The notes: generated by a model not told the origin, from the letters alone. Counted from the first letter of the stretch, positions 7,486 through 47,755 are shown. The stretch: 64,000 bases of DNA from an uncultured Methanoregula sp. (GCA_964590895.1 CAZPYV010000001.1:262164-326163); one strand, 5' to 3'. Translations and numbers: made by a program.

Positions 7486-7500
7486 TTCAGTACCCCCGAA

Positions 7501-11778: not shown

Positions 11779-11839
11779 TTTTTAAAACCTCGTTTTTTCC
11801 TCATGCATTACTGGATTTCCCTCATTCTCCCGCTTGATA

Positions 11840-13779: not shown

Positions 13780-13845
13780 GCTGTGATTAACACTATGAGA
13801 AAAAAATGGCAGATACACAAAATAATCAGAGCGAGGAAAACTTAA

Positions 13846-14361
13846 ATGGCAGAAGCTGAAGCATCGTCTCAGGCAACCGGAAGATCCGGAATGGACGAAA
13901 TAATTGAAGTAGTAGAATTCGCGCTGGGCGGTAAACGGTATGCACTCGACATCCAGCTGGTCCGGGAAATTGTGGTGATGATGCCTATCACCCCCATCCC
14001 GCGTGCTCCGGAATTCGTATCGGGCGTGCTCAACCTTCGCGGTGAGATCACCTACATCATCAACCTAAACAAACTTCTGGATGTGGAAGACCCAGAGATT
14101 AGAAAGGACCAGAAAATTATCGTCTTTGTACCGGCAGCTGCCAAGAAAAATAATGTCGGGATCATTGTCGATAATGTGAGCAGTGTCTTTCAGGTGCCAG
14201 AAGAAGATATTGAAAAGATACAGGACAATGCCTCATCAAAGATCTCAGGTTTTGTAAAAGGGATTATCAAATTAAAGAGCGATGATCACGAGAAGAAGAG
14301 CAAAGGACTGCTCATCTGGATTGATATGGAAAAAATTTTTTCCGGTATGATACCCCAATAA
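13846..14361 (+). CDS. cheW: chemotaxis coupling protein CheW (paralogue 3)
   Basis: The CheW-like domain is recognisable (VVEFALGGKRYALDIQLVREIV...VLNLRGEITYIINLNKLL...GIIVDNV). Confidence 0.9.
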   Translation: MAEAEASSQATGRSGMDEIIEVVEFALGGKRYALDIQLVREIVVMMPITPIPRAPEFVSGVLNLRGEITYIINLNKLLDVEDPEIRKDQKIIVFVPAAAKKNNVGIIVDNVSSVFQVPEEDIEKIQDNASSKISGFVKGIIKLKSDDHEKKSKGLLIWIDMEKIFSGMIPQ

Positions 14362-14398
14362 ATCCCCAAAACTTTTAAAAACCGCGAAATCATTGGTG

Positions 14399-15235
14399 AT
14401 GCTTAATAATCATCCTGAGGCAGACATGGACGATTTTGATACCCTGAAACGATACATTGAACAGACGTTAAAGATCCAGTGTTCGAGTTACAAAGAGGAT
14501 TATATCAAGCGCCGTCTCTTATCAAGGATGCGCTCTACCAATTCTGCAGACTACGGGGCGTATCTCCGGTACCTCAAGATAACTACTCCTGAACTCGAAT
14601 TGTTAAGAAACGCGCTAACCGTTAATGTTACAGAATTTTTCCGCGACATTGAAGTCTATGATGCGATCAGAAAAGAAGTCCTGCCCGATCTTTTCAAACA
14701 GCGAAAACGTCTCAGGATCTGGAGCGCCGGTTGTTCAACCGGAGAAGAACCTTATTCGCTTGCCATGATCCTCCACGAAATGATGTCAATCAACAAGGAA
14801 ATATCCGCACAGATCCTTGCCACTGATATCGATCTGGTGGTGCTGGGTAAAGCCAAAGAGGGTATCTTCTCGCCAAAAGCCATGGTTAAACTCACCGAGA
14901 CCCAGACTCACCGGCATTTCAACAAGCTTCCTAATGGCGATTTCCAGGCCAAACAACATTTAAAAGATTTAATCAAGTTCACCCCAAACGATCTGATGTC
15001 TGGTATCCCTGTCTCACGGTATTTGGATCTCATCACCTGCCGTAATGTGACCATATATTTCAATGAAAAGCAAAAGGATGAACTCGCACGCACATTCCAT
15101 GGCGCACTTGTGGCTGATGGTTACTATATCATGGGTAAGACAGAATATCTCGGACGGGCAGTAGACGGGCTCTTTACTGCGAAAAATACTGCACAGAAAA
15201 TTTTTGTGAGAAAGGAACCTGCAAAGACGGTTTGA
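14399..15235 (+). CDS. cheR: chemotaxis protein methyltransferase CheR
   Basis: The CheR N-terminal helical domain is followed by the SAM-binding domain (TEFFRD, LRIWSAGCSTGEEPYSLAM, ILATDID, FDLITCRNVTIYF). I used the ATG at 14399 because the track start at 14393 is TTG. Confidence 0.9.
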   Translation: MLNNHPEADMDDFDTLKRYIEQTLKIQCSSYKEDYIKRRLLSRMRSTNSADYGAYLRYLKITTPELELLRNALTVNVTEFFRDIEVYDAIRKEVLPDLFKQRKRLRIWSAGCSTGEEPYSLAMILHEMMSINKEISAQILATDIDLVVLGKAKEGIFSPKAMVKLTETQTHRHFNKLPNGDFQAKQHLKDLIKFTPNDLMSGIPVSRYLDLITCRNVTIYFNEKQKDELARTFHGALVADGYYIMGKTEYLGRAVDGLFTAKNTAQKIFVRKEPAKTV

Positions 15236-15621
15236 GGGGTTAGTAGATTTTCCTTTTTTTATTCGTGAAATCTTTGATCAGATAAGGGCATACAGACGGG
15301 TGTAAAGCGTACATCCTGATATGGACAACCATCACGTGGAATTGATTTCTGTGATAACCTCATGCATCGGGCTCTCCCGAAATATTTTGTCTTCCTTTTT
15401 TTTAGGCGTGGGCTTGTAAGACAAGATTTTGTGAACAAGATTGCTGATTGTTTGACACAACCAGAAAATCCGGTAATAAACGTGTTCTTTGCATTAGTCA
15501 ATTATAATCGCGGCGTCTGGTGCTGGTCCGGCAGGTGTTTTTAAAAAGAGTAATTTCAGATGGGTAAAAAGGATTGGTGATTTAGTTGAGATTTCCTGTT
15601 CTTTGTGTTCTGTTTTTTTGT

Positions 15622-16065
15622 TCAGAAAATGATTGGTGAACTGTCCTTTTCTATTAAGAAAGTTTCCATAGTAACGAATCTGATTTCACCGGAGTGCACA
15701 CGAAATATGACAATCTCCGGATCATCCGGACCGCTATAACCAAGAGAGATTAATGACGGACGGTCATTAAACAATCGTGTTTTTAATTTTTTATCCTCAA
15801 CATACTCGCAAAATCCAGTCACCCGCATCATCCGGGCCGTAAGGGGCGGTACCGGTGGAGCAAAAAAGCAGATCTCCACTTTTGGGTTCTTTTTTATTTC
15901 TTTTGCCAGAAGTGTTGAAGCGCCGGTATGGAAATAGAAGGCATCATTCATGACACTCCAGAGTAACAATGTTCTGACATGTGGCTGAGAACCTGCTGCT
16001 GTTGCAAATGAACAAAGCGGGAAATTACCGGCAAATCGCCAACACTCATTTAAATCCATTTTCAA
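15622..16065 (-). CDS. pyridoxamine 5'-phosphate oxidase-like FMN-binding split-barrel family protein
   Basis: The size (147 aa) and sequence pattern (PHVRTLLLW...FYFHTGASTLLAKEIKKNPKVEICF...MRVTG) fit the family. The assignment is from memory of the family, not from a search. Confidence 0.5.
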   Translation of the reverse strand: MKMDLNECWRFAGNFPLCSFATAAGSQPHVRTLLLWSVMNDAFYFHTGASTLLAKEIKKNPKVEICFFAPPVPPLTARMMRVTGFCEYVEDKKLKTRLFNDRPSLISLGYSGPDDPEIVIFRVHSGEIRFVTMETFLIEKDSSPIIF

Positions 16066-16193
16066 TCGTCTTACTTAATTTTTTTGGATTCCTGAAATAG
16101 ATTTCTCAACTAAAAAATCCTCTACAAATAATTGTTAAGACCCACCACATTAAAAACATCCTTATTTCTCACATTTCACGTCAGAATATTTCT

Positions 16194-16250
16194 CTGCATT
16201 TCATATATGCCGTGCATTATCGTTTTGCAAATATTCAATATATCCCCCCA
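16194..16250 (+). promoter_or_regulatory. conserved upstream block of HEAT gene 1 (TATA-like TTCATATATG)
   Basis: ctgcatttcatatatgccgtgca...gcaaatattcaata recurs with few changes at 16927-16980, at the same distance (about 85-95 nt) from the start codon of the paralogue. Confidence 0.35.
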
Positions 16251-16294
16251 GACATTATGATTCATCCCAACAGGGTGGGACTGGAGAAGAAAAA

Positions 16295-16714
16295 ATGGAA
16301 AAAACATTCAATCAGTTAAAAGACAAGAACAGACCCGAGCGCTGGATGTCTGTTATTGCTCTTGGAAATTTTGGTACACCAGCGGTTGATTACCTTCACA
16401 AGGCATTGCATGATGACGACAAGTGGGTACGCTACATGGCTGCCGACGCACTGGGTAACATTGGGGATGTGCGTTCCATTGATCCACTTGTAAAACTCTT
16501 AAATGACAATGATCAGGATGTGCGGTTTGCAACAGTTTATGCACTAGGAACCATTGGACATCCTTCTGCTGTACCAGCACTCCAACAGACATGTGAGAAG
16601 GATAATTGCTTTGTTAGGATTGCCGCTGAAGAAGCACTCTTGAAACTCGGAGAACCCGATAAAAAATCTGGTGCGGGAAAAGCAGGATCATCCCCGTCAG
16701 CGCACAAACGGTAA
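16295..16714 (+). CDS. HEAT-repeat (PBS-lyase-like) protein
   Basis: The HEAT-like units repeat (DDKWVRYMAADALGNIGD..SIDPLVKLLND.DQDVRFATVYALGTIG). Confidence 0.8.
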   Translation: MEKTFNQLKDKNRPERWMSVIALGNFGTPAVDYLHKALHDDDKWVRYMAADALGNIGDVRSIDPLVKLLNDNDQDVRFATVYALGTIGHPSAVPALQQTCEKDNCFVRIAAEEALLKLGEPDKKSGAGKAGSSPSAHKR

Positions 16715-23824: not shown

Positions 23825-23896
23825 GCCTCGGTAGGGTAGCGGACATCCTAGAAGCCTCCGGAGCTTTTGACCCGGGTTCAAGTCCCGGCCGAGGCG
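23825..23896 (+). tRNA. tRNA-Arg (anticodon CCG)
   Basis: I folded the cloverleaf manually. The acceptor stem is GCCUCGG/CCGAGGC with discriminator G. The D-loop is AGCGGACA. The anticodon stem is GAAGC/GCUUU with loop CU-CCG-GA. The T-arm is CCGGG-UUCAAGU-CCCGG. No CCA is encoded, and a T-rich tract follows. Confidence 0.9.
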
Positions 23897-23962
23897 CTCT
23901 GGTTTTTGTTTTAATCTTTTTGTCCCAGGAACACAAATTTTCAAAAAAAGAATAATCAAAAA

Positions 23963-26907: not shown

Positions 26908-28410
26908 TTACGGTATGTACCGCTCGATCTCCCCACAGGTCACAAGCTTTCCACCATCAAGCACCGATACAGCCCCATGACCCCCGCAGATAAGACAGTG
27001 TTTTCCGGTTGACACCAGTTCGTTATCAGTATCCTGTGCCAGTGCAAGCAAACCTTTTCGTTCCTTCTTTGCCATGTCGCTGTCCACATTCACTGACGTT
27101 ACAAGAAATGCGGCAAGCGAACTATAATCCGCCCGTTCTTGTGAGAGACTGGCAAAATTGATCACACTGTCTGCGGAAAACAACAGACCAGATTTCTGTG
27201 AATACAAAAACACCTGACCAGCCGTATGTCCGCTTAAACCATCCAGCACTTCAAGTTCAATATCTCCAATAGAAACCATGCCAATCACTGGAAAAATTCC
27301 CCGAATATTTCCGTTTGGTGCCAAAAAACATTCGATTTCTTCAGGAGTATTAAACCGTGAGAACAGGTTGATCATCTTTGTGTAGAATTCATCCAGAGAG
27401 GAGTGATCACTTCGTGAGCCGTAAGCCCGGTTGTTTGTCCGGATGATCTCACGTGTACTCTGGTGCATGAGCACCGGCACTGCAAAAAAACCGGCAGCCC
27501 CGCAATGATCCGCGTCGGCATGAGTTACAACAATGCGGGAGATTTTCTTTAAGTTCCCCACTCCATACCGCAAAAACATGGAAATTATATCCTGATGATA
27601 AATCCCGTATCCGGTATCAATCATCAGCAGGCTATCTCCGGATCTTAAAAGAAAAATATTACCGCCACATGGTACCTGGAAACAGAACAATGTTGTGTCA
27701 TCGTCTATCCGGAATTTCTGGACCTCTGCGTAAAAATTTTTTCCGGTAGTAGATTTCAAAGTCTGACCAGTCTTAAGAACGCTTTCAAAAACCTGTTTTG
27801 GATCACAATCACGGTTCATTAATTCCTGTGCAATGCGATTGGTGTCGGCCAGAAACGAGAGAAGGAAAGTATCTTCATATTCACCGATAAGTTCGCGGAT
27901 TGCCTGCGCATATCGGACATAGAATACCGTATCATCCAGTTGTTTTCCGGAAGTATCGTATTCAATGATCTCCAAGCGGTACAGGGATTTTAACTGGTTT
28001 AATAAACGATCAACTACTGCACCCTGTTCAAGATTCAGGCTTACCGTAAGACGATCCGGGTGCCGTCCCTTATCATCGAAATCCAAGAATGAGATATTTG
28101 CATCAGCTGATGTTGTTAAACTTAAAAAATCGTACAGTGCACCCGGGCGGTGGGGCAGGTAAACAGAGAATTTTAAGAAACTTTGGGGTTTTATGGAACT
28201 CTGGAGATACCCGATCTGCTTGAGATCCTTTGTTATCTTTTTAAAGGATTCTTCCGATACTGTAACCTCATAAAAAACCGTTCCGGGATCAATGCGGCGG
28301 TCAAACTGGATACGGTTGATATTGCCATCATATTTTTTGATAATCTCTGCAACCCGGTAAAGTGATCCCGGCGTATCGGGCATATGAGCGATAAAAGAGA
28401 ATTTCTTCAA
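26908..28410 (-). CDS. ACT-ACT-metallo-beta-lactamase-fold fusion protein (500 aa)
   Basis: Two N-terminal ACT-like units (HMPDTPGSLYRVAEII; YLPHRPGALYDFLS) precede an MBL-fold domain with the motif VVTHADADHCG. The start is a TTG, which is needed to retain the first ACT beta-strand. Confidence 0.7.
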   Translation of the reverse strand: MKKFSFIAHMPDTPGSLYRVAEIIKKYDGNINRIQFDRRIDPGTVFYEVTVSEESFKKITKDLKQIGYLQSSIKPQSFLKFSVYLPHRPGALYDFLSLTTSADANISFLDFDDKGRHPDRLTVSLNLEQGAVVDRLLNQLKSLYRLEIIEYDTSGKQLDDTVFYVRYAQAIRELIGEYEDTFLLSFLADTNRIAQELMNRDCDPKQVFESVLKTGQTLKSTTGKNFYAEVQKFRIDDDTTLFCFQVPCGGNIFLLRSGDSLLMIDTGYGIYHQDIISMFLRYGVGNLKKISRIVVTHADADHCGAAGFFAVPVLMHQSTREIIRTNNRAYGSRSDHSSLDEFYTKMINLFSRFNTPEEIECFLAPNGNIRGIFPVIGMVSIGDIELEVLDGLSGHTAGQVFLYSQKSGLLFSADSVINFASLSQERADYSSLAAFLVTSVNVDSDMAKKERKGLLALAQDTDNELVSTGKHCLICGGHGAVSVLDGGKLVTCGEIERYIP

Positions 28411-28515
28411 AGATATTCACCGATAATATCATTAAACGTAAGCGTTTATACCGATATAAGTTATGGAAGAAAATTAATAAGAACTACCAAAAAAAGAGAG
28501 GCGGGTTATTGGTTT

Positions 28516-29436
28516 TTACGGCCTTTTCCCTACAAGGACAATTACACCGGTGATTAAAAGCCCGATAAGTGCAGTTACCGGTGAAAGAGGAATTGAAGAT
28601 GGGCTTTTTTGAAGTGCCGGAGATTGTGTTCCTGCCGTACCAGGTAGATTCTGCGTTGTTGCAGCAGATGGGGAAATGCCAGCTGTTATTAATGACGTTG
28701 GATTACCAGAAGATACTCCCACAGTTGTTATGACCGGAGTTGGCGTTCGTGGAGGAAGAACCGTAAAAACCATGACAAGAGGACTTGTCAGTGCGGGGTT
28801 GCTCATCGTGATATAATATTGTCCGGGGGGCATGTCAACATGGAAACCATAATTGAAATATCCAGATCCACTTACCGGTGAAGAATATGTGCGAAGAGTT
28901 GTTCCGGAGATGTCTGTCAGATCAATCCGCAGATAAGATATTCCCCGCTCTGAAAAACCTGTCAACGACACGTAATCGGCAAAGGTCGCAGGGTTAGGAG
29001 TAAGGTTTGCATAAAATTCTGGTTTTTTCATGAACACTGACGTTGTCGAAGAGATTTCAGGATGGTCAAGATCTGTAGCCGTAAGAGTATATCGTGCAGT
29101 CTGCATCTTTTCAATTCCTTTGATACTCGATGTATACCATGCAAACTGCCAGCTACCATCAGGATTCACTTCAACAGGATTTCCTGCACCCGGAATTCCG
29201 TTGAGATCATATATGGGGACTCCCTCTAAAGGGAGACCGGGGCCGGTGATTCGCAGAGATATAATATTTCCAACAGTGTTTTGCCCATCAAAAATAATCG
29301 TGTCACCAATATAGCTCCCACCCGATCCACGGTAGGCAATGCTTACGGTCCCATTCACACCCAGCACCGGCTGGATAATACAAATTGCAGCAATCAGCAG
29401 CACAAGAACTAAAAAAAAACTTCGCATAATACTCAT
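28516..29436 (-). CDS. secreted or cell-surface protein with a signal peptide and a C-terminal TM anchor
   Basis: The N-terminal signal is FFLVLVLLIAAICIIQPVLG. A Ser/Thr/Pro-rich stalk precedes the C-terminal PLSPVTALIGLLITGVIVLVGKRP. Confidence 0.55.
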   Translation of the reverse strand: MSIMRSFFLVLVLLIAAICIIQPVLGVNGTVSIAYRGSGGSYIGDTIIFDGQNTVGNIISLRITGPGLPLEGVPIYDLNGIPGAGNPVEVNPDGSWQFAWYTSSIKGIEKMQTARYTLTATDLDHPEISSTTSVFMKKPEFYANLTPNPATFADYVSLTGFSERGISYLRIDLTDISGTTLRTYSSPVSGSGYFNYGFHVDMPPGQYYITMSNPALTSPLVMVFTVLPPRTPTPVITTVGVSSGNPTSLITAGISPSAATTQNLPGTAGTQSPALQKSPSSIPLSPVTALIGLLITGVIVLVGKRP

Positions 29437-29602
29437 TTTCTAGCCTCTCATTTAAGAGAATATCATTTTTTAAAGGGATAAATTTTTGTTATCGTCAGGA
29501 GCGTACGCTCAAAGATAATAAAAAGGAAGTATTGTTTTTTACCCTATAACGAAACTATATCTGTATTACAAAGGAAACTCTTGTATTCGAGGTAATTTGA
29601 TA

Positions 29603-31633
29603 ATGACCGACGTTGAGTTGGCAATAAAAAATGGAGAACTCCAGTTAAAAACAGCAATAACGACGATACAGGGAACATTTTCCTATGAAGATACAGCCTA
29701 TCATCTCCCCATTTCCTATGCACTGACGGGTATAGCTGTGCATGACCGGAATACCTCTTTGGATGTTTTTTCCCGTACAAAAGATAATTCACTGGTGGCC
29801 TCTGAAATAATCCTTGCAAAAAAAACTGCAGGGAATGGAAAAGAAGAATTATCCTGCACAGGTTTTATTGGCGATAGTACAATCCGTAAGCTTGGGTATT
29901 CACTTGTTGACGGTAGTATTCTTGGACTTGCACTCATTGTCGGAACCCCAGAAAGTGCCGGATCTGCAGCTGCCATCTGCCGCGAACTCCAGGAAAAATA
30001 TATGCTCACCTTCCTTGCCGGCCCTGTCATACCCTCATTATCATCTGCTGGTGTAAAACTGGGTCTTGATTATCGCCTGATCCCCCTTGGCTCAAGCGCG
30101 TTATATGGTGTGCACTTTGTCGATATCATTGCCCGCGTAGCCATGATGTTTGGGGGAGTCACTCCCGGAGATATGCACCGGCTTTTAACCTATGCAGCTG
30201 AACGGGCAAAGGCCATTGTTATCGCACTGCCCGGTCTTTCTGATGAGGAAATTGCGCTTGTTGATAGTATGCGGGTGCTTGGATTTCCCATACTGTCATT
30301 GGGAGATTATAAAAATGGTGCATGGATCTCTGCAACCCCGGAACATATTGTCCGAACCGGCATGGAACTAAAAGGTATTCGTGTCAATGTGACTGCAATT
30401 CCGATTCCCATGGGATGTTCTCCCGCGTTTGAGGGAAAAAGTATCCGGAAAGAAGAGATGTTCGTGGAGTTTGGTGGCGGCAGATCACCGGCATTTGAAT
30501 TGCTGCAAATGAAAAACGCAAATGAGATCAAAGACGGTCTGGTAACAGTCATTGGTCCTGAGATCGATTCCATGAAAGAAGGATCTGCAAATCCGCTGGG
30601 AATCATTATGGAAGTGGCCGGAAAAACCATGAAAAAAGATTATGAGCCGGTTCTCGAGAGACGGATTCATAATTTTGTTAACTACGGCGAAGGATCGTGG
30701 CATGTAGCCCAACGGGATCTCATCTGGGTCCGATTATCGAAAGAGGCTGTGGCAAAAGGTGTAAAGATCGAACATCTGGGAAAACTTCTCGCAAGTAAGT
30801 TCCGTATGGATTTTCCCCAGTTACTCGATGCGGTATCGGTCACTCTCATCACAGATCCGGAAAAAATACTTGTGGCAAAGACAGAGGCAGAACGGGTCTA
30901 TGATGAGCGGGATGCCCGCATCAAAGGTATGCGTGACGGGGATGTAAATACTTTTTATTCCTGCACGCTCTGCCAGACATTTGCACCGAACCATGTCTGC
31001 GTGATCACACCTGAACGCCCTGCACTGTGCGGAGCCATCAGCTGGCTCGATGGAAAGATCGCATACGAGATCTCGCCTGCCGGTGCAAACCAGCCGATCG
31101 AAAAAGGAGCGGCAATCAACGCATTAAACGGTGAATTTGATGGAGTAAACCGGTTCGTCAAAAAAGCTAGCCATGGAGAAATTGACCGGTGTTCACTCTA
31201 CAGCGTCATGGAATACCCGATGACCTGTTGCGGGTGTTTTGAATGCATCGCCCTGATGCTTCCGGAAGTGAACGGGATTATGGTTGTGAACCGTGAGTTC
31301 AAAGGTCTCACACCTTCGGGCATGTCATTTTCCACTCTTGCCGGCACAATTGGCGGCGGTGCACAGACACCGGGGTTTGCAGGAATTTCAAAAGGGTATA
31401 TTCTTTCTGACCGGTTCTTACAAGGTGAGGGGGGAATAGAACGCCTTGTCTGGATGCCTGCGCAACTTAAAGAAGAACTCAAACCGCGCCTGATAAAAAA
31501 ATTTAAAGAGCAGGGCAAACCGGACCTGTTTGATAAGATCGCAGATGAAACAAAAGCCGCCTCCATCGAAGATCTCATGGTGTATCTTGATGGCATAAAA
31601 CACCCGGCTCTGACTATGAAACCACTGGTGTGA
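29603..31633 (+). CDS. acsB: acetyl-CoA synthase catalytic subunit, full-length bacterial AcsB type (676 aa)
   Basis: The A-cluster ligand motifs are FYSCTLCQTFAPNHVCVITPERPALCGAISWLDG and CCGCFE. The protein is collinear from the N-terminus (MTD..., GFIGD, MMFGGVTPG, PAFEGKSIRK, ERRIHNFVNYGEG) to the C-terminus (DKIADET...HPALTM) with Moorella AcsB as I remember it. I used the ATG at 29603, which has GAGGT about 10 nt upstream. Confidence 0.93.
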   Translation: MTDVELAIKNGELQLKTAITTIQGTFSYEDTAYHLPISYALTGIAVHDRNTSLDVFSRTKDNSLVASEIILAKKTAGNGKEELSCTGFIGDSTIRKLGYSLVDGSILGLALIVGTPESAGSAAAICRELQEKYMLTFLAGPVIPSLSSAGVKLGLDYRLIPLGSSALYGVHFVDIIARVAMMFGGVTPGDMHRLLTYAAERAKAIVIALPGLSDEEIALVDSMRVLGFPILSLGDYKNGAWISATPEHIVRTGMELKGIRVNVTAIPIPMGCSPAFEGKSIRKEEMFVEFGGGRSPAFELLQMKNANEIKDGLVTVIGPEIDSMKEGSANPLGIIMEVAGKTMKKDYEPVLERRIHNFVNYGEGSWHVAQRDLIWVRLSKEAVAKGVKIEHLGKLLASKFRMDFPQLLDAVSVTLITDPEKILVAKTEAERVYDERDARIKGMRDGDVNTFYSCTLCQTFAPNHVCVITPERPALCGAISWLDGKIAYEISPAGANQPIEKGAAINALNGEFDGVNRFVKKASHGEIDRCSLYSVMEYPMTCCGCFECIALMLPEVNGIMVVNREFKGLTPSGMSFSTLAGTIGGGAQTPGFAGISKGYILSDRFLQGEGGIERLVWMPAQLKEELKPRLIKKFKEQGKPDLFDKIADETKAASIEDLMVYLDGIKHPALTMKPLV

Positions 31634-31637
31634 GATC

Positions 31638-32594
31638 ATGGTTTCTGATGTGAATTTTGGATGGAGCGGTACTATAGTAAAAGTAATTCTCGGTGCAACA
31701 AAATCAGATGGTGGAACCCGCAGGCTCTCATACCAGATTGGTGGAAGAACAACACTTCCGTTTCTTGAAAGGACTCCGGGCACTTCAGGTCCGCTCATCG
31801 CCTTCGAGATCTGTGATGACCCGCAGAACTGGTCCCCGATTGTCAGGAACTATTTAGGGGATGTTGTTAATGATTGCGGAGAATGGGCACATGCTGCAGA
31901 TTCTGTCTATGGCGCAGACATGATCCGCCTGTACCTGACAAGCACCCGGCAGCGGAATTTTTCAGATATTGCATCTGTGGGAAAAACGGTAGAATCCGTG
32001 TTATCCAAAACCAGCCTGCCACTCATCATTGAGGGAAGCAATGAACCAACAATTGACAGCGAGGTATTCTTAAAATGCGGCGAAGCAGGTGAAGGAGAAC
32101 GCCTGCTTCTTGGAACTGCTGAAGCGGGAAGGTACCGCAGTATTGCTGCTGCTGCAATGGCTTATAATCATTCAGTGATTGCCCAGTCGCCCATAGATGT
32201 CAATCTGGCAAAACAACTCAACATTCTGTTAAAAGAGATCGGTGTAGCAAGAGACCACATAGTCATCGATCCTTATACCGGCTCTCTGGGCTATGGATTT
32301 GAGTATTCCTATTCAGCCATGGAACGGATCCGGTTTGCTGCGCTTAAAGGCGATGCCGATCTTGCCATGCCGGTCATCTGCTCAGCCATTGATTCATTAA
32401 CCGTAAAGGAAGTAAGGGATGCAGAACCAGCCATTAAAGACGATATCGCAGTCCAGTGGGAATTCACAACCGGACTTGCAGCTGCAGCAGCCGGTGCAGA
32501 GATCATCTGTGTGCGGCACCCACGGACAATTTCCCTGCTCAGAAAAGCATTTACAAATCTTAAATCCGTAAAAACTGATGTGGGGGTGCAATAA
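31638..32594 (+). CDS. acsD: corrinoid iron-sulfur protein small subunit (AcsD / CdhD-like)
   Basis: The assignment rests on the size (318 aa), the position between acsB and acsC, and the TIM-barrel CFeSP small-subunit pattern (LIAFEI.D, SLPLIIEGS, IDPYTGSLGYGFEYSYS). The gene starts 4 nt after the acsB stop. Confidence 0.85.
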   Translation: MVSDVNFGWSGTIVKVILGATKSDGGTRRLSYQIGGRTTLPFLERTPGTSGPLIAFEICDDPQNWSPIVRNYLGDVVNDCGEWAHAADSVYGADMIRLYLTSTRQRNFSDIASVGKTVESVLSKTSLPLIIEGSNEPTIDSEVFLKCGEAGEGERLLLGTAEAGRYRSIAAAAMAYNHSVIAQSPIDVNLAKQLNILLKEIGVARDHIVIDPYTGSLGYGFEYSYSAMERIRFAALKGDADLAMPVICSAIDSLTVKEVRDAEPAIKDDIAVQWEFTTGLAAAAAGAEIICVRHPRTISLLRKAFTNLKSVKTDVGVQ

Positions 32595-32595
32595 G

Positions 32596-33930
32596 ATGGC
32601 ACTCAAAGCTCTTGACATCTACAAACTCCTGCCAAGAAAAAACTGCAAGGAATGCGGTGATCCCACCTGCCTGACCTTTGCTATGAAACTTGCCGGGGGA
32701 AAAACTGATGTAGACCTCTGTCCGTATCTCGATGATGCAGCCAAAGCGGTATTGGGCGCTACAACCCGCCCGCCAATCCGGCTTGTGAAACTCGGGATTG
32801 GTGAACGATCTTTTGCAGTTGGTGAAGAGTTTGTTCTCTATCGTCACGAAAAAACGTTTTATCACCCCCCGGGAATTTTATTTAAGATTTCAGACACTCA
32901 GACCACGGATGAAATTCAGGCAATAACAACGCGTGTCCGGGATGAATCGTTTACCCGTGTGGGAGCGGATCTCCGGTTTAACGGAATTGCGATTGAAAAT
33001 ACCAGTGGTAATCCAGATACTTTTGCACGAGCGGTTGAATCGGTTGAAAAAAATGCTGACCTGCCGCTTGTACTGATGGCCAGAGACCCTGCAGCATTAT
33101 CAGCAGCTCTTATGCATTGCGGAACCTATCGTCCACTAATCCACGCAGCTACTTCGGAAAATTACAAGGAATTCTGTGCACTTGCAAAAAACCATAGTTG
33201 CCCGCTGGTAATTAAAGAAAATAATATCGATACACTGGCACAACTCGCAAAAGACTGCACAGCAAATGGAGTGCAGGATCTGATACTGGATCTTTCACCG
33301 GAATCATTACAGGCATTTATTGTCCGGTCTACAACGATCCGCCAGCTTGCCATCACCCGGGCAGCACCCGATCTCGGGTACCCGGTATTTCTCGATGCGT
33401 CCGTAATGGAGATGCCGGATGCAGCAATTACACTGGGCATTGCAAAATATGCTTCAGTCATTATTTCTAATCCACTTTCTTTTGCAACTGCAAGAGCAGC
33501 ACTGACCCTGCGCCAGAATATTTATACCGATCCCCAGAAACCAATCCAGATGAACCCGGGTCTGTACCGTCTGGGAAATCCTGGAAAAGACGCCCCCGTC
33601 TTAATGACGGTAAATTTTTCGCTTACATTCTTTACCTTGCAGGGATATCTTGAATCCACCCGTGTGCCCTGCTTCATGCTGATTGTTGACACCGAAGGAC
33701 TCTCTGTGCTCACAGCAGTTGCTGCAGGAAAACTTAGTGAGATGCTGGTAAAAGACTCAATAAAAAAATTTGCAGTTGAAGATGAGGTATCCCACAGGAA
33801 ACTCATTATTCCCGGATACGCTTCCCCGCTCTCGGGCATGATAAACGAAGCAACCGGTTGGGAAGTGCTGGTCGGTCCACGGGATGCAGCAGAAATTGGT
33901 GATTTTTTAAATGAGGAGTGGAAACAATAA
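32596..33930 (+). CDS. acsC: corrinoid iron-sulfur protein large subunit (AcsC / CdhE-like)
   Basis: The N-terminal [4Fe-4S] motif is MALKALDIYKLLPRKNCKECGDPTCLTFAMKLAGGKTDVDLCPYL (C-x2-C-x4-C-x16-C). The ATG at 32596 lies 1 nt after the acsD stop. Confidence 0.9.
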   Translation: MALKALDIYKLLPRKNCKECGDPTCLTFAMKLAGGKTDVDLCPYLDDAAKAVLGATTRPPIRLVKLGIGERSFAVGEEFVLYRHEKTFYHPPGILFKISDTQTTDEIQAITTRVRDESFTRVGADLRFNGIAIENTSGNPDTFARAVESVEKNADLPLVLMARDPAALSAALMHCGTYRPLIHAATSENYKEFCALAKNHSCPLVIKENNIDTLAQLAKDCTANGVQDLILDLSPESLQAFIVRSTTIRQLAITRAAPDLGYPVFLDASVMEMPDAAITLGIAKYASVIISNPLSFATARAALTLRQNIYTDPQKPIQMNPGLYRLGNPGKDAPVLMTVNFSLTFFTLQGYLESTRVPCFMLIVDTEGLSVLTAVAAGKLSEMLVKDSIKKFAVEDEVSHRKLIIPGYASPLSGMINEATGWEVLVGPRDAAEIGDFLNEEWKQ

Positions 33931-35832
33931 ATGCGTACCGTTACTTTTATTCCCGGTTATCGTAAGATCGATGTTGAACAGGGCAGCACAATCCTTGATG
34001 CTGCCCAGCGTGCTGGATTAAATATTAACGTGGTCTGCGGCGGTCAGGGAAAATGCGGAAAATGCATTGTCTATATCCAGTCTGGAAAGACAAACTTTGA
34101 CCAGCAGAAATTCGGGCAGTTTTTTACAGCTGATGAACGTACACGTGGAGCCTGTCTGGCCTGCCAGACAACAGTAGAAAGCGATTTGCAGGTATTTATT
34201 CCAGAGAGTACATTGATCCAAGAACAGAAAATTCTCATAGATGGACAGGAAACCGCTATTGAATTTCACCCATCGGTCCGGAAATATTATGTTGAACTCC
34301 AACCTCCAACTATTTCCGATCCCTCGCCGGATCTTTCCCGTTTGCTCTGGGGCATCCAGAAAGCCGGAGGCCCTTCAGCAGAAAAAATTTATGCGCCTTT
34401 AGAAAATCTCCGGAAAATCCCGGCCATCCTTCGCCATTCCGAGTGGAAAGCCACCGGGACCGTTGCCCTTGTGCCGGGTGGATACCGCCTTGTTGATGTG
34501 CAGGAAAATAATACGGCAAAAAGACTCTATGGAGCAGCAGTAGATCTGGGCTCTACAACAATCGTTGTATACATCTGGGATCTGGTCTCTGGAAAAGTAG
34601 CCGGCGTTGCTTCGAATTACAACCGGCAGATCAGTTGTGGAGAGGATATTTTAGCCCGCGTGAATTTTGCCCGGAAGAACGGGCTTTTTAAACTCCAGAC
34701 CCTTGCTACCGAGAGCATTAATGCAGCTATCACTACGGCATCCAACACAGCAGGCATTGACCGTGAGGATATCTACGAGATTGTTGTTGCAGGAAATACC
34801 GTAATGACCCACATGCTGCTGGGTATCGATCCTGCATATATGATCTCCGAACCGTATGTTCCGGTAGTGCGAAGAGCACTATCGGTATCAACAGGCAGGA
34901 TTGGTATAACCTGTAATTCCAACGGGGGACTCTTTGTATTTCCGGCAGTCAGCGATTTTATAGGCGGTGACATCATTGCAGATATCCTTGCCTGTGGGAT
35001 GAGCGAGAAAGAAGAGATCTCCCTCTTGATCGATATTGGTACCAATTTTGAAGTTGTACTCGGCAACAGTGAGTGGATGTTTTCCTGCGCAGGTGCGGCC
35101 GGCCCCGCCCTCGAAGGCGGTGAGGTACTCTTTGGCATGCGGGCAAACCCGGGTGCAATTGAAAAGATCTCCATTGATCCGGGCACGCTCAACCCTGTGT
35201 ATTCCACAATCAATGGTGTAAAACCCCGTGGCATCTGCGGCTCCGGACTTATCGATCTTCTGGCAGAACTCCTCTGCACCTGTGTCATTGACAGAACCGG
35301 GCGCATCAACACAGGTATAGCCAATCCACGAATACGGACAAACGGCCACTTCCCCGAATACGTTATTGAATGGGCGAACGGAACCGGTATAGGAAAAGAT
35401 ATTGTCATTACCGAAAACGATATCAAAAATCTGATCATGAGTAAAGCATCAGTACATGCAGCCTGTGTCACCCTGATGAACCAGGCCGGTATTAACCGAA
35501 AAGAGATAAGTACCATCTATTTTGCCGGGGCATTTGGAAACTACATCAACAAAAAGAATGCAACCATCATTGGACTCATACCGGAAATTGGAATTGATAA
35601 GATCGTCAATATCGGAAACGGGGCGGTAACCGGTGCAAATATTGCGCTCATCAACCGGAGGAAGAGAAAAACTCTTGACGATATTGCATGCCGGATTGCC
35701 TATATTGAGCTCAATGCTGAGTCAGCATTCATGGATGAATATACCTCCAGCACATTCCTGCCCCATACTGATCTTACGCTTTTTCCGGAGGTACAGAAAC
35801 TCCTTGATACCTGCCGGATAACAAAGGAGTAA
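33931..35832 (+). CDS. acsV: reductive activator of the corrinoid Fe-S protein (RACo / AcsV-like; 2Fe-2S ferredoxin + ASKHA ATPase)
   Basis: The N-terminal plant-type ferredoxin motif is VVCGGQGKCGKCIV...ACLACQT. A large ASKHA-like domain follows (AVDLGSTTIV, IDIGTN). The start abuts the acsC stop. Confidence 0.85.
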   Translation: MRTVTFIPGYRKIDVEQGSTILDAAQRAGLNINVVCGGQGKCGKCIVYIQSGKTNFDQQKFGQFFTADERTRGACLACQTTVESDLQVFIPESTLIQEQKILIDGQETAIEFHPSVRKYYVELQPPTISDPSPDLSRLLWGIQKAGGPSAEKIYAPLENLRKIPAILRHSEWKATGTVALVPGGYRLVDVQENNTAKRLYGAAVDLGSTTIVVYIWDLVSGKVAGVASNYNRQISCGEDILARVNFARKNGLFKLQTLATESINAAITTASNTAGIDREDIYEIVVAGNTVMTHMLLGIDPAYMISEPYVPVVRRALSVSTGRIGITCNSNGGLFVFPAVSDFIGGDIIADILACGMSEKEEISLLIDIGTNFEVVLGNSEWMFSCAGAAGPALEGGEVLFGMRANPGAIEKISIDPGTLNPVYSTINGVKPRGICGSGLIDLLAELLCTCVIDRTGRINTGIANPRIRTNGHFPEYVIEWANGTGIGKDIVITENDIKNLIMSKASVHAACVTLMNQAGINRKEISTIYFAGAFGNYINKKNATIIGLIPEIGIDKIVNIGNGAVTGANIALINRRKRKTLDDIACRIAYIELNAESAFMDEYTSSTFLPHTDLTLFPEVQKLLDTCRITKE

Positions 35833-35839: not shown

Positions 35840-36874
35840 ATGGCAAAGATGATTCCTTCTCCCCATTCACAGGCAACGGGTATCGGGTCTCTTCCAAATT
35901 TGGATCCGCTTGAAGCTTGCCAGGATGTGCTGGAAATCTTTCCTGCGTTTCCTTATATTCCCTCCCTGCCCCGCAGGGGATTGTTAGAAAGAATTGTTTT
36001 TAATGATTCTGAACAGTTACCCGGCCGAATCATACGGGATGAACGGCTCTTCTTTGACAGCGCTTCTGACCAGACTGCAGCCATGGAACAGGTGTACATG
36101 GATTATGTTGAGGGAAATTTTGCACCCTATGCCCTGCACACCGAATATTCATCAGCATTTACCGAGATGATGATGCGTAAGCTTCCTGATATCAGCATCC
36201 TGAAATTCCAGATCACCGGACCGGTCACTTTCGGCATGCAGGTGGTAGATGAAGCCAAACGCCCGATCTATTTTGATACACAACTGGCCGATGTACTGGG
36301 AAAGATGCTGGCTTTAAAGGCACGCTGGTGCGAAGTGGAAATGCAGGAAAAGACCGGTGTTAAAGAGACCCTGATTTTTCTTGACGAACCCTATTTTGCA
36401 TCGCTGGGATCTTCTGTTGTTCCTGTTGACCAGGAGACGGTAAGGGCTAATTGGGAAGATGCTGCGGCACTGGTAAAAGGAGGGTTAGGGGTTCATTGCT
36501 GCTCGAATACGGACTGGGAATTTGTTATCGGCCTTAATCCTTCAGTTGTGTCACTCGATGCATATACAACGGCTAAAGAGTTCCTGTTGTACGCTGATAC
36601 GATCGTTCCTTATATGGAGCGCGGAGGTGTTGTCGCATGGGGCATTGTCCCTTCTGACCCACAGCTTTTTACTCAAGAGACCACGGATTCACTCTATAGC
36701 AAATATATCGATATCCGCACGCGGCTCTGTAACTGTATGCCAGAAGATCTCTTTGATGCCCAGTCATTAATTACACCAAGTTGTGGGATCCGTTTTGCTG
36801 ATCGCCCCACTGCCCGGGCAATTATGCAGGCAGCAGCAGAAATTTCGCATCGTATCCGTAATAAAAACGGATGA
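35840..36874 (+). CDS. core MetE-like (cobalamin-independent methionine synthase C-terminal barrel only) Zn-dependent methyltransferase
   Basis: At 344 aa this is about half of a full MetE. The N-terminal motif TGIGSLP resembles T..GS.P. A candidate Zn-ligand motif GVHCCSNTDW fits H-x-C, and ITPSCGIRF fits the C-terminal P.CG. The family call is by pattern, not by search. Confidence 0.6.
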   Translation: MAKMIPSPHSQATGIGSLPNLDPLEACQDVLEIFPAFPYIPSLPRRGLLERIVFNDSEQLPGRIIRDERLFFDSASDQTAAMEQVYMDYVEGNFAPYALHTEYSSAFTEMMMRKLPDISILKFQITGPVTFGMQVVDEAKRPIYFDTQLADVLGKMLALKARWCEVEMQEKTGVKETLIFLDEPYFASLGSSVVPVDQETVRANWEDAAALVKGGLGVHCCSNTDWEFVIGLNPSVVSLDAYTTAKEFLLYADTIVPYMERGGVVAWGIVPSDPQLFTQETTDSLYSKYIDIRTRLCNCMPEDLFDAQSLITPSCGIRFADRPTARAIMQAAAEISHRIRNKNG

Positions 36875-36896: not shown

Positions 36897-37664
36897 ATGT
36901 CCCACCATCCCTTTGTCATAGTAATTTCCGGAAAAGGCGGGACCGGAAAGACCACCCTCAGTTCACTGCTCATCCGCTCCTTACTCGAAACTGGAGAAAA
37001 GCCGGTGCTCGCAGTAGATGCTGACCCTAATGCAAATCTTCACGAGGCTCTTGGGGTTACGGTCGGTGAGACGCTGGGCAGCATGCGCGAAGAAGCATTT
37101 ACAAGAAAGATACCTCCCGGAATGAACCGGCATGATTATGTCCGTTTCAGGTTCCGGCAGGCGCTTGTTGAAGCAGAAGGATTTGATCTCATTGCAATGG
37201 GAAGACCTGAAGGCAGCGGGTGTTACTGTTTTGCAAACGATCTCCTTTCAGAATGTATAACAGAGCTGGAACGGGAATATCGTTTCATTGTTATCGACAC
37301 TGAAGCAGGAATGGAACATATCAGCAGGGGGACGATAGGAAAACCCAATATGCTGTTGATAGTCAGTGATCCCGGAGCACGGGGGCTGCGAACAATAGTA
37401 CGAATACGAGAGATCGCCACCCAGCTCGGGCTGGAACCGGCAAAGATCCATATCGTTTTTAATAAATACAAAACCGGAACTGCCCCTGTGGATATCGGCA
37501 ATGAAACGCCTATTGCAATTCTTCCTTATGATCCAAAAGTAGAGGCTGCCGATCTTGCTGCAACGCCGGTTTCACAAATTCCTCCTGACAGTCCCGCCCG
37601 GATTGTTGTAAAGGGGCTTGCAGAAAAAATCAGCACCCTTGCAAAAGAAAACACCAATCATTAA
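36897..37664 (+). CDS. cooC: CooC/AcsF-type nickel-insertion ATPase
   Basis: The deviant Walker A is SGKGGTGKTT and the metal-binding C-x-C is GSGCYCFAN. I used the ATG at 36897 (MSHHPF); the track start at 36783 would overlap the upstream gene. Confidence 0.85.
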   Translation: MSHHPFVIVISGKGGTGKTTLSSLLIRSLLETGEKPVLAVDADPNANLHEALGVTVGETLGSMREEAFTRKIPPGMNRHDYVRFRFRQALVEAEGFDLIAMGRPEGSGCYCFANDLLSECITELEREYRFIVIDTEAGMEHISRGTIGKPNMLLIVSDPGARGLRTIVRIREIATQLGLEPAKIHIVFNKYKTGTAPVDIGNETPIAILPYDPKVEAADLAATPVSQIPPDSPARIVVKGLAEKISTLAKENTNH

Positions 37665-44414: not shown

Positions 44415-45434
44415 TTAAAGATACTTCTTCTTTACGATCAGTTCAGCATTCAGCACACTTGCGCCGGCAGCACCACGAATAGTATTATGTCCCATTGCAA
44501 CGAAACGCACACCCTCTCTAAGGCGTCCTACTGAAACGGTCATGCCCTTACCCCGCATCCGGTCAAGACGGGGCTGGGGGCGATCGGGTTCCTCTTCAAA
44601 GAAATGGACGGATTCTGCGGGTTGTGTCGGCAGTCCTTTTATTAAGGGTTTGTAATCCCGGTAGGCTTTTTTGAGTTTTTCAACCGGCTCTTTGATGTCA
44701 ACCCAGACTGCCATTGAATGCCCATCGATCACCGGCACTCGGTGGCAGCTGGCACTCACTTTAAACGAAGCGTTAGTAACTTTGTTACCTTTTAAGGTAC
44801 CCATAATCTTGAGCGTCTCAGTCTCCATCTTCTCTTCTTCTTTACCTATGTACGGGATGACATTATCATAAATCGACATGGCAGCAACTCCGGCAAATCC
44901 GGCCCCGGATATCGCCTGCATAGTTGCTACCCGGAGATCGGTGAATTTGAACTCCCGAATAGGTGCAAGTGCAGTCACCATCACAATCGTGGAACAATTC
45001 GGGTTGGTGACAATGAACCCGTCCCTGCCTGCATCCTTCTGGACGTCAATGAGACCGAGATGCTCCGGGTTCACTTCCGGAACAACAAGAGGGATGTCCT
45101 TTTCCATGCGGTAAGAACTCGCGTTGCTGCATACAGCGATTCCTGCATCAGCAAATTCCTTCTCCACATCAATGGCAATTTCTGCAGGAAGTGCAGAAAA
45201 TACCAAGTCTACATCCTTCATCGCTTTGGGTGAAGTAGGAACGACTTTGAGTTTTCCAATCTTTTCAGGAAACGGCGTGTCAAGACGCCAGTTCACGATC
45301 TTTCCATAGGGCTTTCCCGCGCTGCGATCGGATGCGGCGAGCTTCGACAGATTGAACCAGGGATGTTCCGCAAGTTGTTCAACAAATCGCTGACCTACCG
45401 CACCCGTTGCTCCGAGCACTCCAACATTGATCAT
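44415..45434 (-). CDS. asd: aspartate-semialdehyde dehydrogenase
   Basis: The NAD-binding motif is VGVLGATGAVGQRF and the active-site region is NPNCSTI. I used the ATG at 45434 (MINVGVLG). Confidence 0.92.
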   Translation of the reverse strand: MINVGVLGATGAVGQRFVEQLAEHPWFNLSKLAASDRSAGKPYGKIVNWRLDTPFPEKIGKLKVVPTSPKAMKDVDLVFSALPAEIAIDVEKEFADAGIAVCSNASSYRMEKDIPLVVPEVNPEHLGLIDVQKDAGRDGFIVTNPNCSTIVMVTALAPIREFKFTDLRVATMQAISGAGFAGVAAMSIYDNVIPYIGKEEEKMETETLKIMGTLKGNKVTNASFKVSASCHRVPVIDGHSMAVWVDIKEPVEKLKKAYRDYKPLIKGLPTQPAESVHFFEEEPDRPQPRLDRMRGKGMTVSVGRLREGVRFVAMGHNTIRGAAGASVLNAELIVKKKYL

Positions 45435-45757
45435 AGGTATCAGGTCCTGTATGTGTGTGATTTTCCCCGTTTGCGATGGTGGCGGGTTTATAAAATCCCA
45501 TTTCTCCTGTGATAATAAAAACATTGTTTTTTAATATTTGGGGAGAAACAATCCTGAAATTTATTATTTTTTAAGGTTGATTGCGAAATTCTGTAATGGG
45601 AATGAATTCTTAAAAAATCGTATTTACGACAAAGGAATCGAAAAAAATCCGCACCTTTTCCGATATTTTTAAAAAATCCTCGCTAAACGGATATAGGAAT
45701 TGTTGACCTGCTGAGGAAGAAGCCTAAAAAAAAATAAAAACCGGACAAAATCCGTAA

Positions 45758-45931
45758 TTATTCCATGTGAATTGCTTCTGACGGGCAGACATCAACACAG
45801 GTCTGGCAGTCTACGCACTGGTCCTTATCCACTTTTGCCTTGTCATCCTCCATGGCAATGGCCGATGCAGGGCATTCACTCACACAGGTTTCACATCCGG
45901 TACATTTCGTATTGTCAACGATTGCTACCAA
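45758..45931 (-). CDS. 2x[4Fe-4S] ferredoxin (57 aa, below the ORF-track cutoff)
   Basis: Manual translation of the minus strand gives (M)VAIVDNTKCTGCETCVSECPASAIAMEDDKAKVDKDQCVDCQTCVDVCPSEAIHME, which has two CxxCxxCxxxCP motifs. The start is a TTG at 45931 with GGAG 8 nt upstream. This replaces the implausible plus-strand ORF 45772..45975. Confidence 0.7.
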   Translation of the reverse strand: MVAIVDNTKCTGCETCVSECPASAIAMEDDKAKVDKDQCVDCQTCVDVCPSEAIHME

Positions 45932-46016
45932 CTAGTTCACTCCATCGTATATGTTTTACAAAAGACAAAAAATAGGTTTCGATATTACCACCGGTTTATC
46001 CTGGCAAAAAAAGTGA

Positions 46017-46781
46017 TTATTTTTTAAGATTGAGCACATCACTCATGCCGTAGATACCGGGTTTTTTACCCACAACCCACCTAGCTGCATGGAGAGCTCC
46101 GCTGGCAAACACAGAACGATCGGACGCATGGTGCGAGAGTTCAATTGTCTCAAAATTCTTTGAGAACATGACCTTGTGATCGCCAACAATATCGCCACCG
46201 CGGACTACATGGACACCGATCTCATTTTTACGTTCCGTCATCCCCTCGCGCCCATACTGCTTCTGGCGGGGACCTGCCTCTTCTTCAAGAATCTGCAGGA
46301 TGGTCTTTGCAGTCCCGCTCGGTGCATCCTTCTTATTCCTGTGGTGCGCTTCGAATACCTCAATATCATAATCTTTTAACAGCTTTCCGGATTCTCTGAC
46401 GAGTTGCCAGAAGATATTTACACCGACTGAGAAGTTGCTTGATATCACTGCAGGCACGTTGTTATGGATTGCTTTTTCCATCACTGCGCGCTGCTCTGTA
46501 GTGAAACCCGTAGTGCCGACAACCAGCGCTACATTGTTGCGCGCAGCCATCTTTACGTTCTCGACAGCGGCTGCAGCTATCGTAAAATCGATCAGCACAT
46601 CAGCCTGTGTCGTCTTGATGAACGATTCTGCATTCTTCGTTTCCACAATTTCAGCGCCAAAGAATGAACTGGATTTGAGGTTTATGCCACCTACCAGTTC
46701 CAGATCAGAAGACTCATTGACCATCCTGCCAATGGTCTGCCCCATCCGTCCTGAGGCCCCGCATACCACGACTTTGATCAT
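46017..46781 (-). CDS. dapB: 4-hydroxy-tetrahydrodipicolinate reductase
   Basis: The signatures are MIKVVVCGASGRMG and EAHHRNKKDAPSGTA. Confidence 0.92.
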   Translation of the reverse strand: MIKVVVCGASGRMGQTIGRMVNESSDLELVGGINLKSSSFFGAEIVETKNAESFIKTTQADVLIDFTIAAAAVENVKMAARNNVALVVGTTGFTTEQRAVMEKAIHNNVPAVISSNFSVGVNIFWQLVRESGKLLKDYDIEVFEAHHRNKKDAPSGTAKTILQILEEEAGPRQKQYGREGMTERKNEIGVHVVRGGDIVGDHKVMFSKNFETIELSHHASDRSVFASGALHAARWVVGKKPGIYGMSDVLNLKK

Positions 46782-46789
46782 GGTTCAGC

Positions 46790-47755
46790 TCACCTCATCC
46801 GTTTCGATGCTGCAGATTTTTTTGTTCCGTTTTTTGTTACTGGTTTCTTTGCCGATACCGCACGTTTAGCACTGGTTTTTGCCGGTATTGTGGCCAGCAC
46901 TTTTTTGAGTTGTTCTGTCTTTTTTGTATCCAGATCATCGAGCGGAAGTCGCACGGGTCCACCCGCCATACCCAAAAGTTCCACAGCCTTTTTCACCGGA
47001 ATGGGATTGGTATCAATGAACATCGAGCGGAACAGTGGGGACAGGGCAAAATGCAGCACCAGTGCTTTCTGGTAATCGCCCTGTTTCATGGCCTCATACA
47101 TGGCAACCATACGGCTGGGATCCACATTTGCTGCAACCGATATGACACCAGCACCACCCAGTGCCATGATGGGGAGCGTGATGTTGTCATCACCGGAGAT
47201 GACAGCAAATTCATCGTCTTGCGTATCTTCAATGATTCTTGATATCTGGCTGATATTACCACTGGCTTCCTTAATTGCTACGATATTTGGATGTTGGGCC
47301 AGCTCGGCTACCAGATCGGGTTCAAGATTCTGGCCGGTTCTTCCCGGAACATTATACATAATGACCGGGATGTCGAGATCCGCCAGTTTTGTGTAATGCT
47401 TGATGAGCCCTGAACGGTTCGGCTTGTTGTAGTACGGACTGATGACGAGCACCCCATCCGCACCGATGTCCTTAGCTGCCTTTGTTAACCGTACCGCTTC
47501 TGCTGTGTTGTTGGACCCGGTGCCGGCAATAACGGGAATCCGGCCCTTGACTTTCTCGACAGTTATCTGGACAACCTTCTCATGCTCTTCAAACGTGAGT
47601 GTTGCTGATTCACCAGTCGATCCACACGGAACAATCCCGTGGATACCACAGGACATGAGAAATTCTATGTTGCGTTCCAGACCCTGAATATCAAGGCCCA
47701 TCGCAGAGTTCCGTTTAAAAGGAGTTATGATAGCTGGAAGGACACCTTCAAACAT
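46790..47755 (-). CDS. dapA: 4-hydroxy-tetrahydrodipicolinate synthase with a basic C-terminal extension of about 31 aa
   Basis: The signatures are GIVPCGSTGE, GTGSN, YNVPGRTG and IVAIKEASG (catalytic Lys). The extra tail is PAKTSAKRAVSAKKPVTKNGTKKSAASKRMR. Confidence 0.92.
   Translation of the reverse strand: MFEGVLPAIITPFKRNSAMGLDIQGLERNIEFLMSCGIHGIVPCGSTGESATLTFEEHEKVVQITVEKVKGRIPVIAGTGSNNTAEAVRLTKAAKDIGADGVLVISPYYNKPNRSGLIKHYTKLADLDIPVIMYNVPGRTGQNLEPDLVAELAQHPNIVAIKEASGNISQISRIIEDTQDDEFAVISGDDNITLPIMALGGAGVISVAANVDPSRMVAMYEAMKQGDYQKALVLHFALSPLFRSMFIDTNPIPVKKAVELLGMAGGPVRLPLDDLDTKKTEQLKKVLATIPAKTSAKRAVSAKKPVTKNGTKKSAASKRMR

Follow-up and report, generated by a model that had tools for sequence, protein, structure and literature searches.

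The gene lying between those for the reductive activator RACo and the ATPase CooC, in a 64,000-nucleotide stretch of DNA from an uncultured Methanoregula sp. (denoted here as the window), encodes a member of the MesB family of core methionine synthases, and not a canonical MetE, a MesA, an MtaA or an AcsE. Its product is the sole methyltransferase of the surrounding acs operon, and it probably acts as a zinc-dependent methylcorrinoid:homocysteine methyltransferase, the operon encoding the parts of a closed methyl cycle that would run via the corrinoid protein CoFeSP (AcsCD). That the methyl group comes from methylated CoFeSP is the reading with the strongest support. The protein described here looks like the most canonical member of its clade, in most of which the side chains expected to bind homocysteine have been replaced, an observation that is possibly new.

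The activity of this type of enzyme was characterized by Deobald and coworkers (2020, PMC7005905) using cbdbA481, the core-MetE of Dehalococcoides mccartyi CBDB1. These authors reported methylcobalamin:homocysteine activity and no activity with 5-methyl-THF, and they proposed that CoFeSP (AcsCD) directly donates the methyl group to core-MetE; a value of 170 µM for free methylcobalamin, derived from a Hill fit in an assay with D,L-homocysteine, is found in their supplement. Shortly after, Price and coworkers (2021, PMC7857596) gave the family the name MesB and cited a mesB-acsC-acsD operon of methanogens as evidence that CoFeSP is the donor. They also found MesB in 6 of 12 Methanomicrobiales reference proteomes, and MesA in all 12. 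Both the arrangement of MesB within an acs operon and the donor deduced from it were, thus, already published in 2020–2021, and the window is another instance. The first-pass annotation, made from the sequence of the window, had described the physiological corrinoid donor of such truncated enzymes as unclear, which holds insofar as CoFeSP is still a hypothetical donor, but overlooks that it had been proposed in 2020 and argued for in 2021.

The mesB gene is an intact open reading frame, and its 344-residue product contains TGIGSLP at residues 13–19, H219-C220-C221 within a GVHCCSNTDW motif, and PSCG at residues 313–316, where the first-pass annotation had placed them. The stop codon of RACo (35832) is followed by a 7-nt spacer and by the ATG of mesB, with a GGAG sequence 11 nt 5' of this ATG. 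All of the nearest protein relatives belong to Methanoregula or other Methanoregulaceae, the top match among named genomes being a Methanoregula sp. MAG with 92% identity.

The criterion used for MesB membership was that of Price et al. (2021, PMC7857596), namely a phmmer score of at least 130 bits against a characterized MesB. The cbdbA481 protein was recovered from a public metagenome contig by means of the gene-specific part of primer A481_fw (Deobald 2020 supplement), which yielded a Dehalococcoides core-MetE of 343 aa (L002, 3349–4380, minus strand) whose two ends agree with the primers. With cbdbA481 as the query, phmmer gave the Methanoregula protein 195.0 bits (E 1e-61), and BLASTP showed 32% identity over 333/344 residues (E 4e-63). 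The alignment runs from end to end, residues 13–344 pairing with residues 11–341 of cbdbA481, which bears out the earlier claim that the N-terminal folate-binding barrel is missing. Scores against MesB in phmmer range from 182 to 221 bits over the entire archaeal clade (122 proteins), and the CoFeSP genes acsC and acsD, whose presence is required of a MesB, are found in the same operon. The remaining families do not accommodate the protein: it reaches 16.3 bits with the MesA-type NCBIfam model PRK00957 (cut-off 258), it has half the length of a canonical MetE as well as a single barrel, it has no match to the URO-D Pfam family of MtaA/MtbA, and it has no pterin-binding (DHPS-like) domain of the kind that defines AcsE (MeTr).

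Against Pfam, the protein has no match at E <0.01, and no match to Meth_synt_2 even at E up to 10. The missing Pfam/NCBIfam match was considered as evidence against MetE homology, but this was dropped because cbdbA481 itself has no Pfam match at E up to 10; Meth_synt_2 was passed by one of five MesB family members tested. As no Pfam-A model recognizes MesB, most of its relatives are annotated as "hypothetical protein". Among PDB sequences, neither phmmer with the protein nor hmmsearch with the family profile gave a significant match, the best relevant one being MesD (3rpd, E 0.43).

The relationship with MetE is clearer at the level of the fold. The AF2 model (pLDDT 81.6, pTM 0.85) is a single (β/α)8 barrel with the ligand and substrate residues at the C-terminal ends of the strands. 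When this model was submitted to a fold search with Foldseek, the first 19 PDB matches were all MetE (E ~1e-7), and uroporphyrinogen decarboxylase structures appeared only from rank 30 down (E ~1e-3). The barrel of the MetE C-terminal type anticipated by the first-pass annotation was therefore recovered, and the profile and structural comparison with MtaA/MtbA that it had suggested came out with MetE first. An hhalign comparison of the profile with the single E. coli MetE sequence gave a probability of ~40% and reproduced the DEP, HxC, acidic and C-G motifs; the C-terminal two-thirds are convincing motif by motif, and the region near Glu484 is ambiguous.

The zinc ligands modelled in cbdbA481 (H215, C217, D236 and C312) align with H219, C221, D240 and C315 of the Methanoregula protein, which also align with E. 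coli MetE H641, C643, E665 and C726, while S17 and D182 correspond to the MetE homocysteine ligands Ser433 and Asp599. In a diverse set of 91 representatives out of 1,446 clusters, H219, D240 and E183 are invariant, and the conservation of S17, D182, C221 and C315 is 90% or higher. Within the close clade, where the mean column identity is 81%, the zinc ligands are kept in 120/120 proteins, and the triad, whose retention had been singled out for checking, and its acidic fourth ligand are present in 80/80 species genomes.

The spacings between consecutive genes from acsB to cooC are 4, -17 (acsD and acsC overlap), 0, 7 and 22 nt, indicating a single operon acsB-acsD-acsC-RACo-mesB-cooC (Table 1). 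The real start of cooC is the ATG located 22 nt 3' of mesB. The assignment of acsB rests on NCBIfam NF040764 (907.7 bits, cut-off 800), with additional matches to Pfam CdhC and ACS_CODH_B_C. The gene for the small CoFeSP subunit precedes that for the large one. Wherever acsB, acsD, acsC and RACo are all seen in an annotated related cluster, as they are in three (L003, L085 and L088), this order acsB-acsD-acsC-RACo recurs.

Table 1. Genes of the acs-mesB operon and functional residues of the MesB product (coordinates count from the first nucleotide of the window).
Feature	Coordinates	Strand	Details
acsB, bacterial-type acetyl-CoA synthase (alpha/beta + N-terminal domain)	29597-31633	+	678 aa from the listed TTG
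acsD, CoFeSP small subunit	31638-32594	+	NCBIfam NF003376, 354.6 bits (cut-off 280); Pfam CdhD
acsC, CoFeSP large subunit, corrinoid- and [4Fe-4S]-binding	32578-33930	+	NCBIfam PRK04165, 556 bits; Pfam FeS, CdhD
RACo/AcsV, ATP-dependent reductive activator of corrinoid protein	33931-35832	+	Pfam Fer2, RACo_linker, Raco_middle, RACo_C_ter
mesB, MesB-type core methionine synthase	35840-36874	+	195 bits and 32% identity vs cbdbA481; residue conservation; fold
MesB residues			Zn ligands H219, C221, D240, C315; substrate residues S17, D182/E183; clade-specific IPSLP 40-44
cooC/acsF-type Ni-insertion ATPase	36897-37664	+	255 aa; Pfam CbiA/AAA_31; P-loop GKGGTGKTT; C109-Y-C111

The 64-kb window and four annotated related clusters yielded neither AcsE, MtrH nor CODH, and Pfam and NCBIfam scans of the window revealed no MetE, MetH or MesA. 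None of its open reading frames, mesB included, has a Pterin_bind Pfam match. The first-pass annotation had placed mesB in the slot normally occupied by AcsE; it is indeed the only methyltransferase gene of the operon, but nothing shows that the function of AcsE has been replaced.

Other parts of the window may be briefly mentioned. Divergently oriented upstream of acsB (26908–29436, minus strand) are genes for an ACT-domain/metallo-beta-lactamase fusion (500 aa) and an S-layer/PEGA-like protein (306 aa), and in many Methanoregulaceae genomes both keep their synteny with the acs cluster. A large block devoted to chemotaxis and signalling (2133–15235) contains three CheW genes, CheR and hybrid histidine kinases, together with a 908-aa receiver-PAS-polyHAMP-MCP fusion (2133–4859) and a 1425-aa MCP with many tandem HAMP_2 repeats (7501–11778). 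The sole RNA gene of the window (ARAGORN; Rfam gathering thresholds) is a tRNA-Arg(CCG) at 23825–23897 on the plus strand, and further genes (CofE, pyruvoyl arginine decarboxylase, PCNA, primase, proteasome and FttA) are consistent with a methanogenic archaeon as the host.

The position of mesB, 7 nt after RACo and ahead of cooC, was confirmed by coordinates and Pfam matches, and it is a conserved feature. Where the flanks were long enough, RACo is directly 5' of mesB in 69/69 Methanoregulaceae species genomes and CooC directly 3' in 71/72, counts that derive from the clade alignment and cover Methanoregulaceae genomes only. Such a placement is far from chance. A 54%-identical outgroup protein is encoded in an equivalent cluster (L085, GCA_032942435.1), and in that genome the DNA ~2.8 kb downstream of the acs-mesB cluster (13869–16684) encodes a CooS-type CODH of 652 aa from the Prismane family, along with a second CooC.

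The module also occurs in more distant lineages. In a Heimdallarchaeota MAG (GCA_014730365.1; L088, 1793–14467), the series acsB-acsD-acsC-RACo-MesB-cooC is followed by HcyBio (PF01837), AbpE, asd and aspartokinase, an apparent aspartate-to-methionine operon in which the methyl group would come from acetyl-CoA. In a bacterial MAG (GCA_030602715.1; L089, 3896–12351), the genes acsD-acsC-RACo(short)-MesB-cooC precede those for MetK (SAM synthetase) and AhcY (SAH hydrolase), with no acsB among the genes called in the upstream 8 kb that are shown. These neighbors tie the module to methionine metabolism and, consequently, point to homocysteine as the acceptor. Together with the conserved synteny, they strengthen the case for methyl-CoFeSP as the donor, which the first-pass annotation had deduced, independently of the 2021 argument, from the placement of the gene. 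The window itself contains genes for aspartate-semialdehyde dehydrogenase, dapB and dapA (44415–47755, minus strand), located 7.5–11 kb beyond mesB on its downstream side. Although asd has a further role in homocysteine synthesis, its company here is that of lysine-pathway genes, so that no link to mesB is implied.

We infer that CoFeSP is the donor, that homocysteine is the acceptor and that the flow is, as proposed for Dehalococcoides, from the methyl group of acetyl-CoA to methionine. Briefly, AcsB would cleave (or make) acetyl-CoA, its methyl group being exchanged with the AcsCD corrinoid, which would cycle between Co(I) and CH3-Co(III). In MesB, homocysteine would be activated as a zinc thiolate by H219, C221, D240 and C315, and the transfer of the methyl group from CH3-Co(III)FeSP would then yield methionine and Co(I). 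Corrinoid that has slipped to Co(II) would be re-reduced by RACo, and the Ni site of AcsB would be matured by CooC. No published experiment on methyl transfer from CoFeSP to MesB was found in the literature searched. Several points speak against this explanation: the 64-kb window contains no CODH to dispose of CO; a second methionine synthase looks redundant, given the presence of MesA in all 12 Methanomicrobiales proteomes and an abundance of methyl-H4MPT; and the acceptor pocket is non-canonical in Methanoregulaceae.

This last point requires some attention. At positions 17/182, the 121 proteins of the clade carry Ala/Asn (109), Gly/Asn (3), Thr/Asn (1), Ser/Asn (1) or Ser/Asp (7), and the corresponding figures for the 80 species genomes are 69, 7, 0, 2 and 2, so that Ala or Gly at position 17 and Asn at position 182 occur in 76/80 species orthologues (~95%). 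The Methanoregula protein of the window is of the rare Ser17/Asp182 type, and its 92%-identical named relative is Ser/Asn. In addition, the near-invariant WPQLP motif of the family is changed to [IV]P[TS]LP across the whole Methanoregulaceae clade; the protein has I40 and S42 where 82–83 of the 91 diverse representatives carry W and Q. In the model, the equivalent of WPQLP ends barrel strand β-2, the position of Glu484 in MetE and of a Gln in MesA and MesC, and Price and coworkers (2021, PMC7857596) had difficulty aligning this region in MesB. If the equivalence of Q42 and Glu484, which is based on predicted strand topology, is correct, Gln42 would be the third residue with which MesB really binds homocysteine, and it would also have been lost in this clade. 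With Ser changed to Ala/Gly, Asp to Asn and Gln to Thr in most of these orthologues, the acceptor in the clade is less certain than assumed.

In a neighbour-joining tree, bacterial proteins show the combination S/Q/D and the base of the archaeal clade shows A/T/N. On this tree, the Ser/Asp state of the Methanoregula protein looks secondarily regained by way of an S/N intermediate, and S/D would have arisen independently once more. The sub-clades with S/D and A/N are separated by 15 fixed differences, mostly in predicted active-site loops. The notion that D45 might offset the charge lost at N182 in proteins of the A/N type was discarded as not general, the outgroup protein P0121 having K45 together with N182.

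Whether the remodelled pocket changes the function was weighed from both sides. One possibility, which we consider unlikely, is that the MesB-like enzyme of Methanoregulaceae has shifted to another thiol, for instance as a CoFeSP:CoM methyltransferase analogous to MtaA; in a reverse variant, CoFeSP might be loaded from methyl-CoM, substituting for the missing AcsE/H4MPT methyltransferase and leading to acetyl-CoA synthesis. Such a shift would fit the coexistence of invariant zinc ligands with pocket residues replaced throughout the clade, including Thr or Ser in place of the probable counterpart of Glu484, and the change of Asp to Asn, which removes the charge that binds the amino group of homocysteine. 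It would also fit the reported presence of MesA in all Methanomicrobiales, which would make MesB redundant as a methionine synthase, the lack of any other methyltransferase in the cluster, the CooS and CooC pair 2.8 kb away from it in one relative, and the usual annotation of the acs cluster as an acetyl-CoA-forming CODH/ACS (PMC10579272). However, the Methanoregula protein keeps S17 and D182 like the characterized enzyme, canonical members of the same six-gene module adjoin homocysteine or SAM genes, homocysteine could still be bound by Asn and backbone amides, and no new cationic residue able to bind a sulfonate was identified. In the reverse variant, the methyl group would have to move from methyl-CoM onto Co(I), an uphill step according to the established energetics of Mtr. 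Moreover, M. hungatei, the only cultured Methanomicrobiales species checked, needs acetate for growth, the role of its Cdh cluster being called undefined for that reason (PMC4704411), and this requirement argues against autotrophic acetyl-CoA synthesis. The specific proposal that the combined changes (Ser17 to Ala/Gly, Gln42 to Thr/Ser, Asp182 to Asn and Trp40 to Ile/Val) mean that Methanoregulaceae MesB no longer serves chiefly as a methionine synthase and instead links CoFeSP to a different thiol, e.g., coenzyme M, is, in our opinion, distinctly unlikely. Coenzyme M had been raised speculatively in the first-pass annotation as an alternative acceptor; it is not favored for the protein of the window, which retains Ser17 and Asp182, although it is possible for the clade, in which these residues are mostly replaced.

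It is also highly doubtful that the protein, as a genuine methionine synthase, takes its methyl group from another corrinoid protein (e.g., MtrA) or from a free methylcobamide, with the operon being a co-inherited block acquired horizontally. Core MetEs do accept free methylcobalamin in vitro, some MesB genes are located away from acs genes, with loci of the Dehalococcoides type adjoining methionine-salvage genes, and MesB paralogues may use other corrinoid proteins (Price 2021, PMC7857596). Against this, all 123 MesB-containing proteomes examined in the same work have AcsC or AcsD, and the adjacency to RACo and CooC described above is maintained over ~45% sequence divergence and between domains. 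For free methylcobalamin, the KM is reportedly ~240 µM, and either this figure or that of 170 µM is unphysiologically high. Finally, the idea that the protein is a MetE-like relic, decaying or non-catalytic and devoid of any role as a methyltransferase, might be suggested by the missing Pfam match and the NCBIfam score of only 16 bits, but cbdbA481 is just as invisible to Pfam, and the invariant zinc ligands, the 81% mean column identity and the kept synteny effectively refute it.

If CoFeSP is indeed the donor, the six genes would constitute a self-contained module that conveys the methyl group of acetyl-CoA to homocysteine with no pterin carrier. Such a pterin-free shortcut has been suggested to operate in Dehalococcoides, and the case has been made that it represents an ancient type of methyl metabolism; it would also explain why a bacterial-type ACS has been retained in acetate-requiring Methanomicrobiales. 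Were the remodelled pocket instead to reflect a different thiol, the operon would provide a shunt from the methyl group of acetyl-CoA to methyl-CoM, or an AcsE-independent means of loading bacterial-type ACS, in acetate-requiring methanogens regarded as "hydrogenotrophic", and the lineage of the Methanoregula protein would have recurrently gone back toward homocysteine binding (first S17, then D182). The syntenic S/D and A/N orthologues represent a natural pair with which to probe acceptor specificity.

Among known systems, MesB from D. mccartyi CBDB1 has the same single barrel of ~343–344 aa, 32% identical from end to end. Both proteins contain an HxC...D...C zinc site, in which the fourth ligand is Asp and not Glu, a GVHCC(G/S)NTDW motif, and the Ser and Asp homocysteine ligands, and both hosts have AcsBCD with no AcsE nearby. 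However, the Dehalococcoides gene is located outside the acs operon, adjoining methionine-salvage and SAM genes, whereas that of Methanoregula is inside it; IPSLP replaces WPQLP and M52 is missing in the archaeal protein; and its host differs from Dehalococcoides in being methanogenic and in having methyl-H4MPT and, as reported in the literature, MesA. MesA (Methanothermobacter MetE, MTH775), whose predicted donor is MtrA, and MesC are also single-barrel core enzymes acting as zinc-dependent methylcobalamin:homocysteine methyltransferases, but they form separate families. Canonical MetE (E. coli, T. maritima) has a common catalytic barrel fold with catalytic residues at equivalent positions, the differences being that the Methanoregula protein has no N-terminal folate-binding barrel, that it falls below the Pfam Meth_synt_2 threshold and that its predicted donor is a methylcorrinoid and not a methyl-folate. 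AcsE, the methyl-THF:CoFeSP methyltransferase, acts likewise on a protein-bound methylcorrinoid but has a pterin-binding fold, while MtaA/MtbA (methylcobamide:CoM methyltransferases of the URO-D family) share the protein-bound methylcorrinoid, and MtaA the zinc-thiolate as well, within a different fold. The closest counterparts are the mesB-acsC-acsD operons of methanogens (Price 2021, Fig 3B), which have the same arrangement, occur in the same order, Methanomicrobiales, and present no essential difference from the operon described here.
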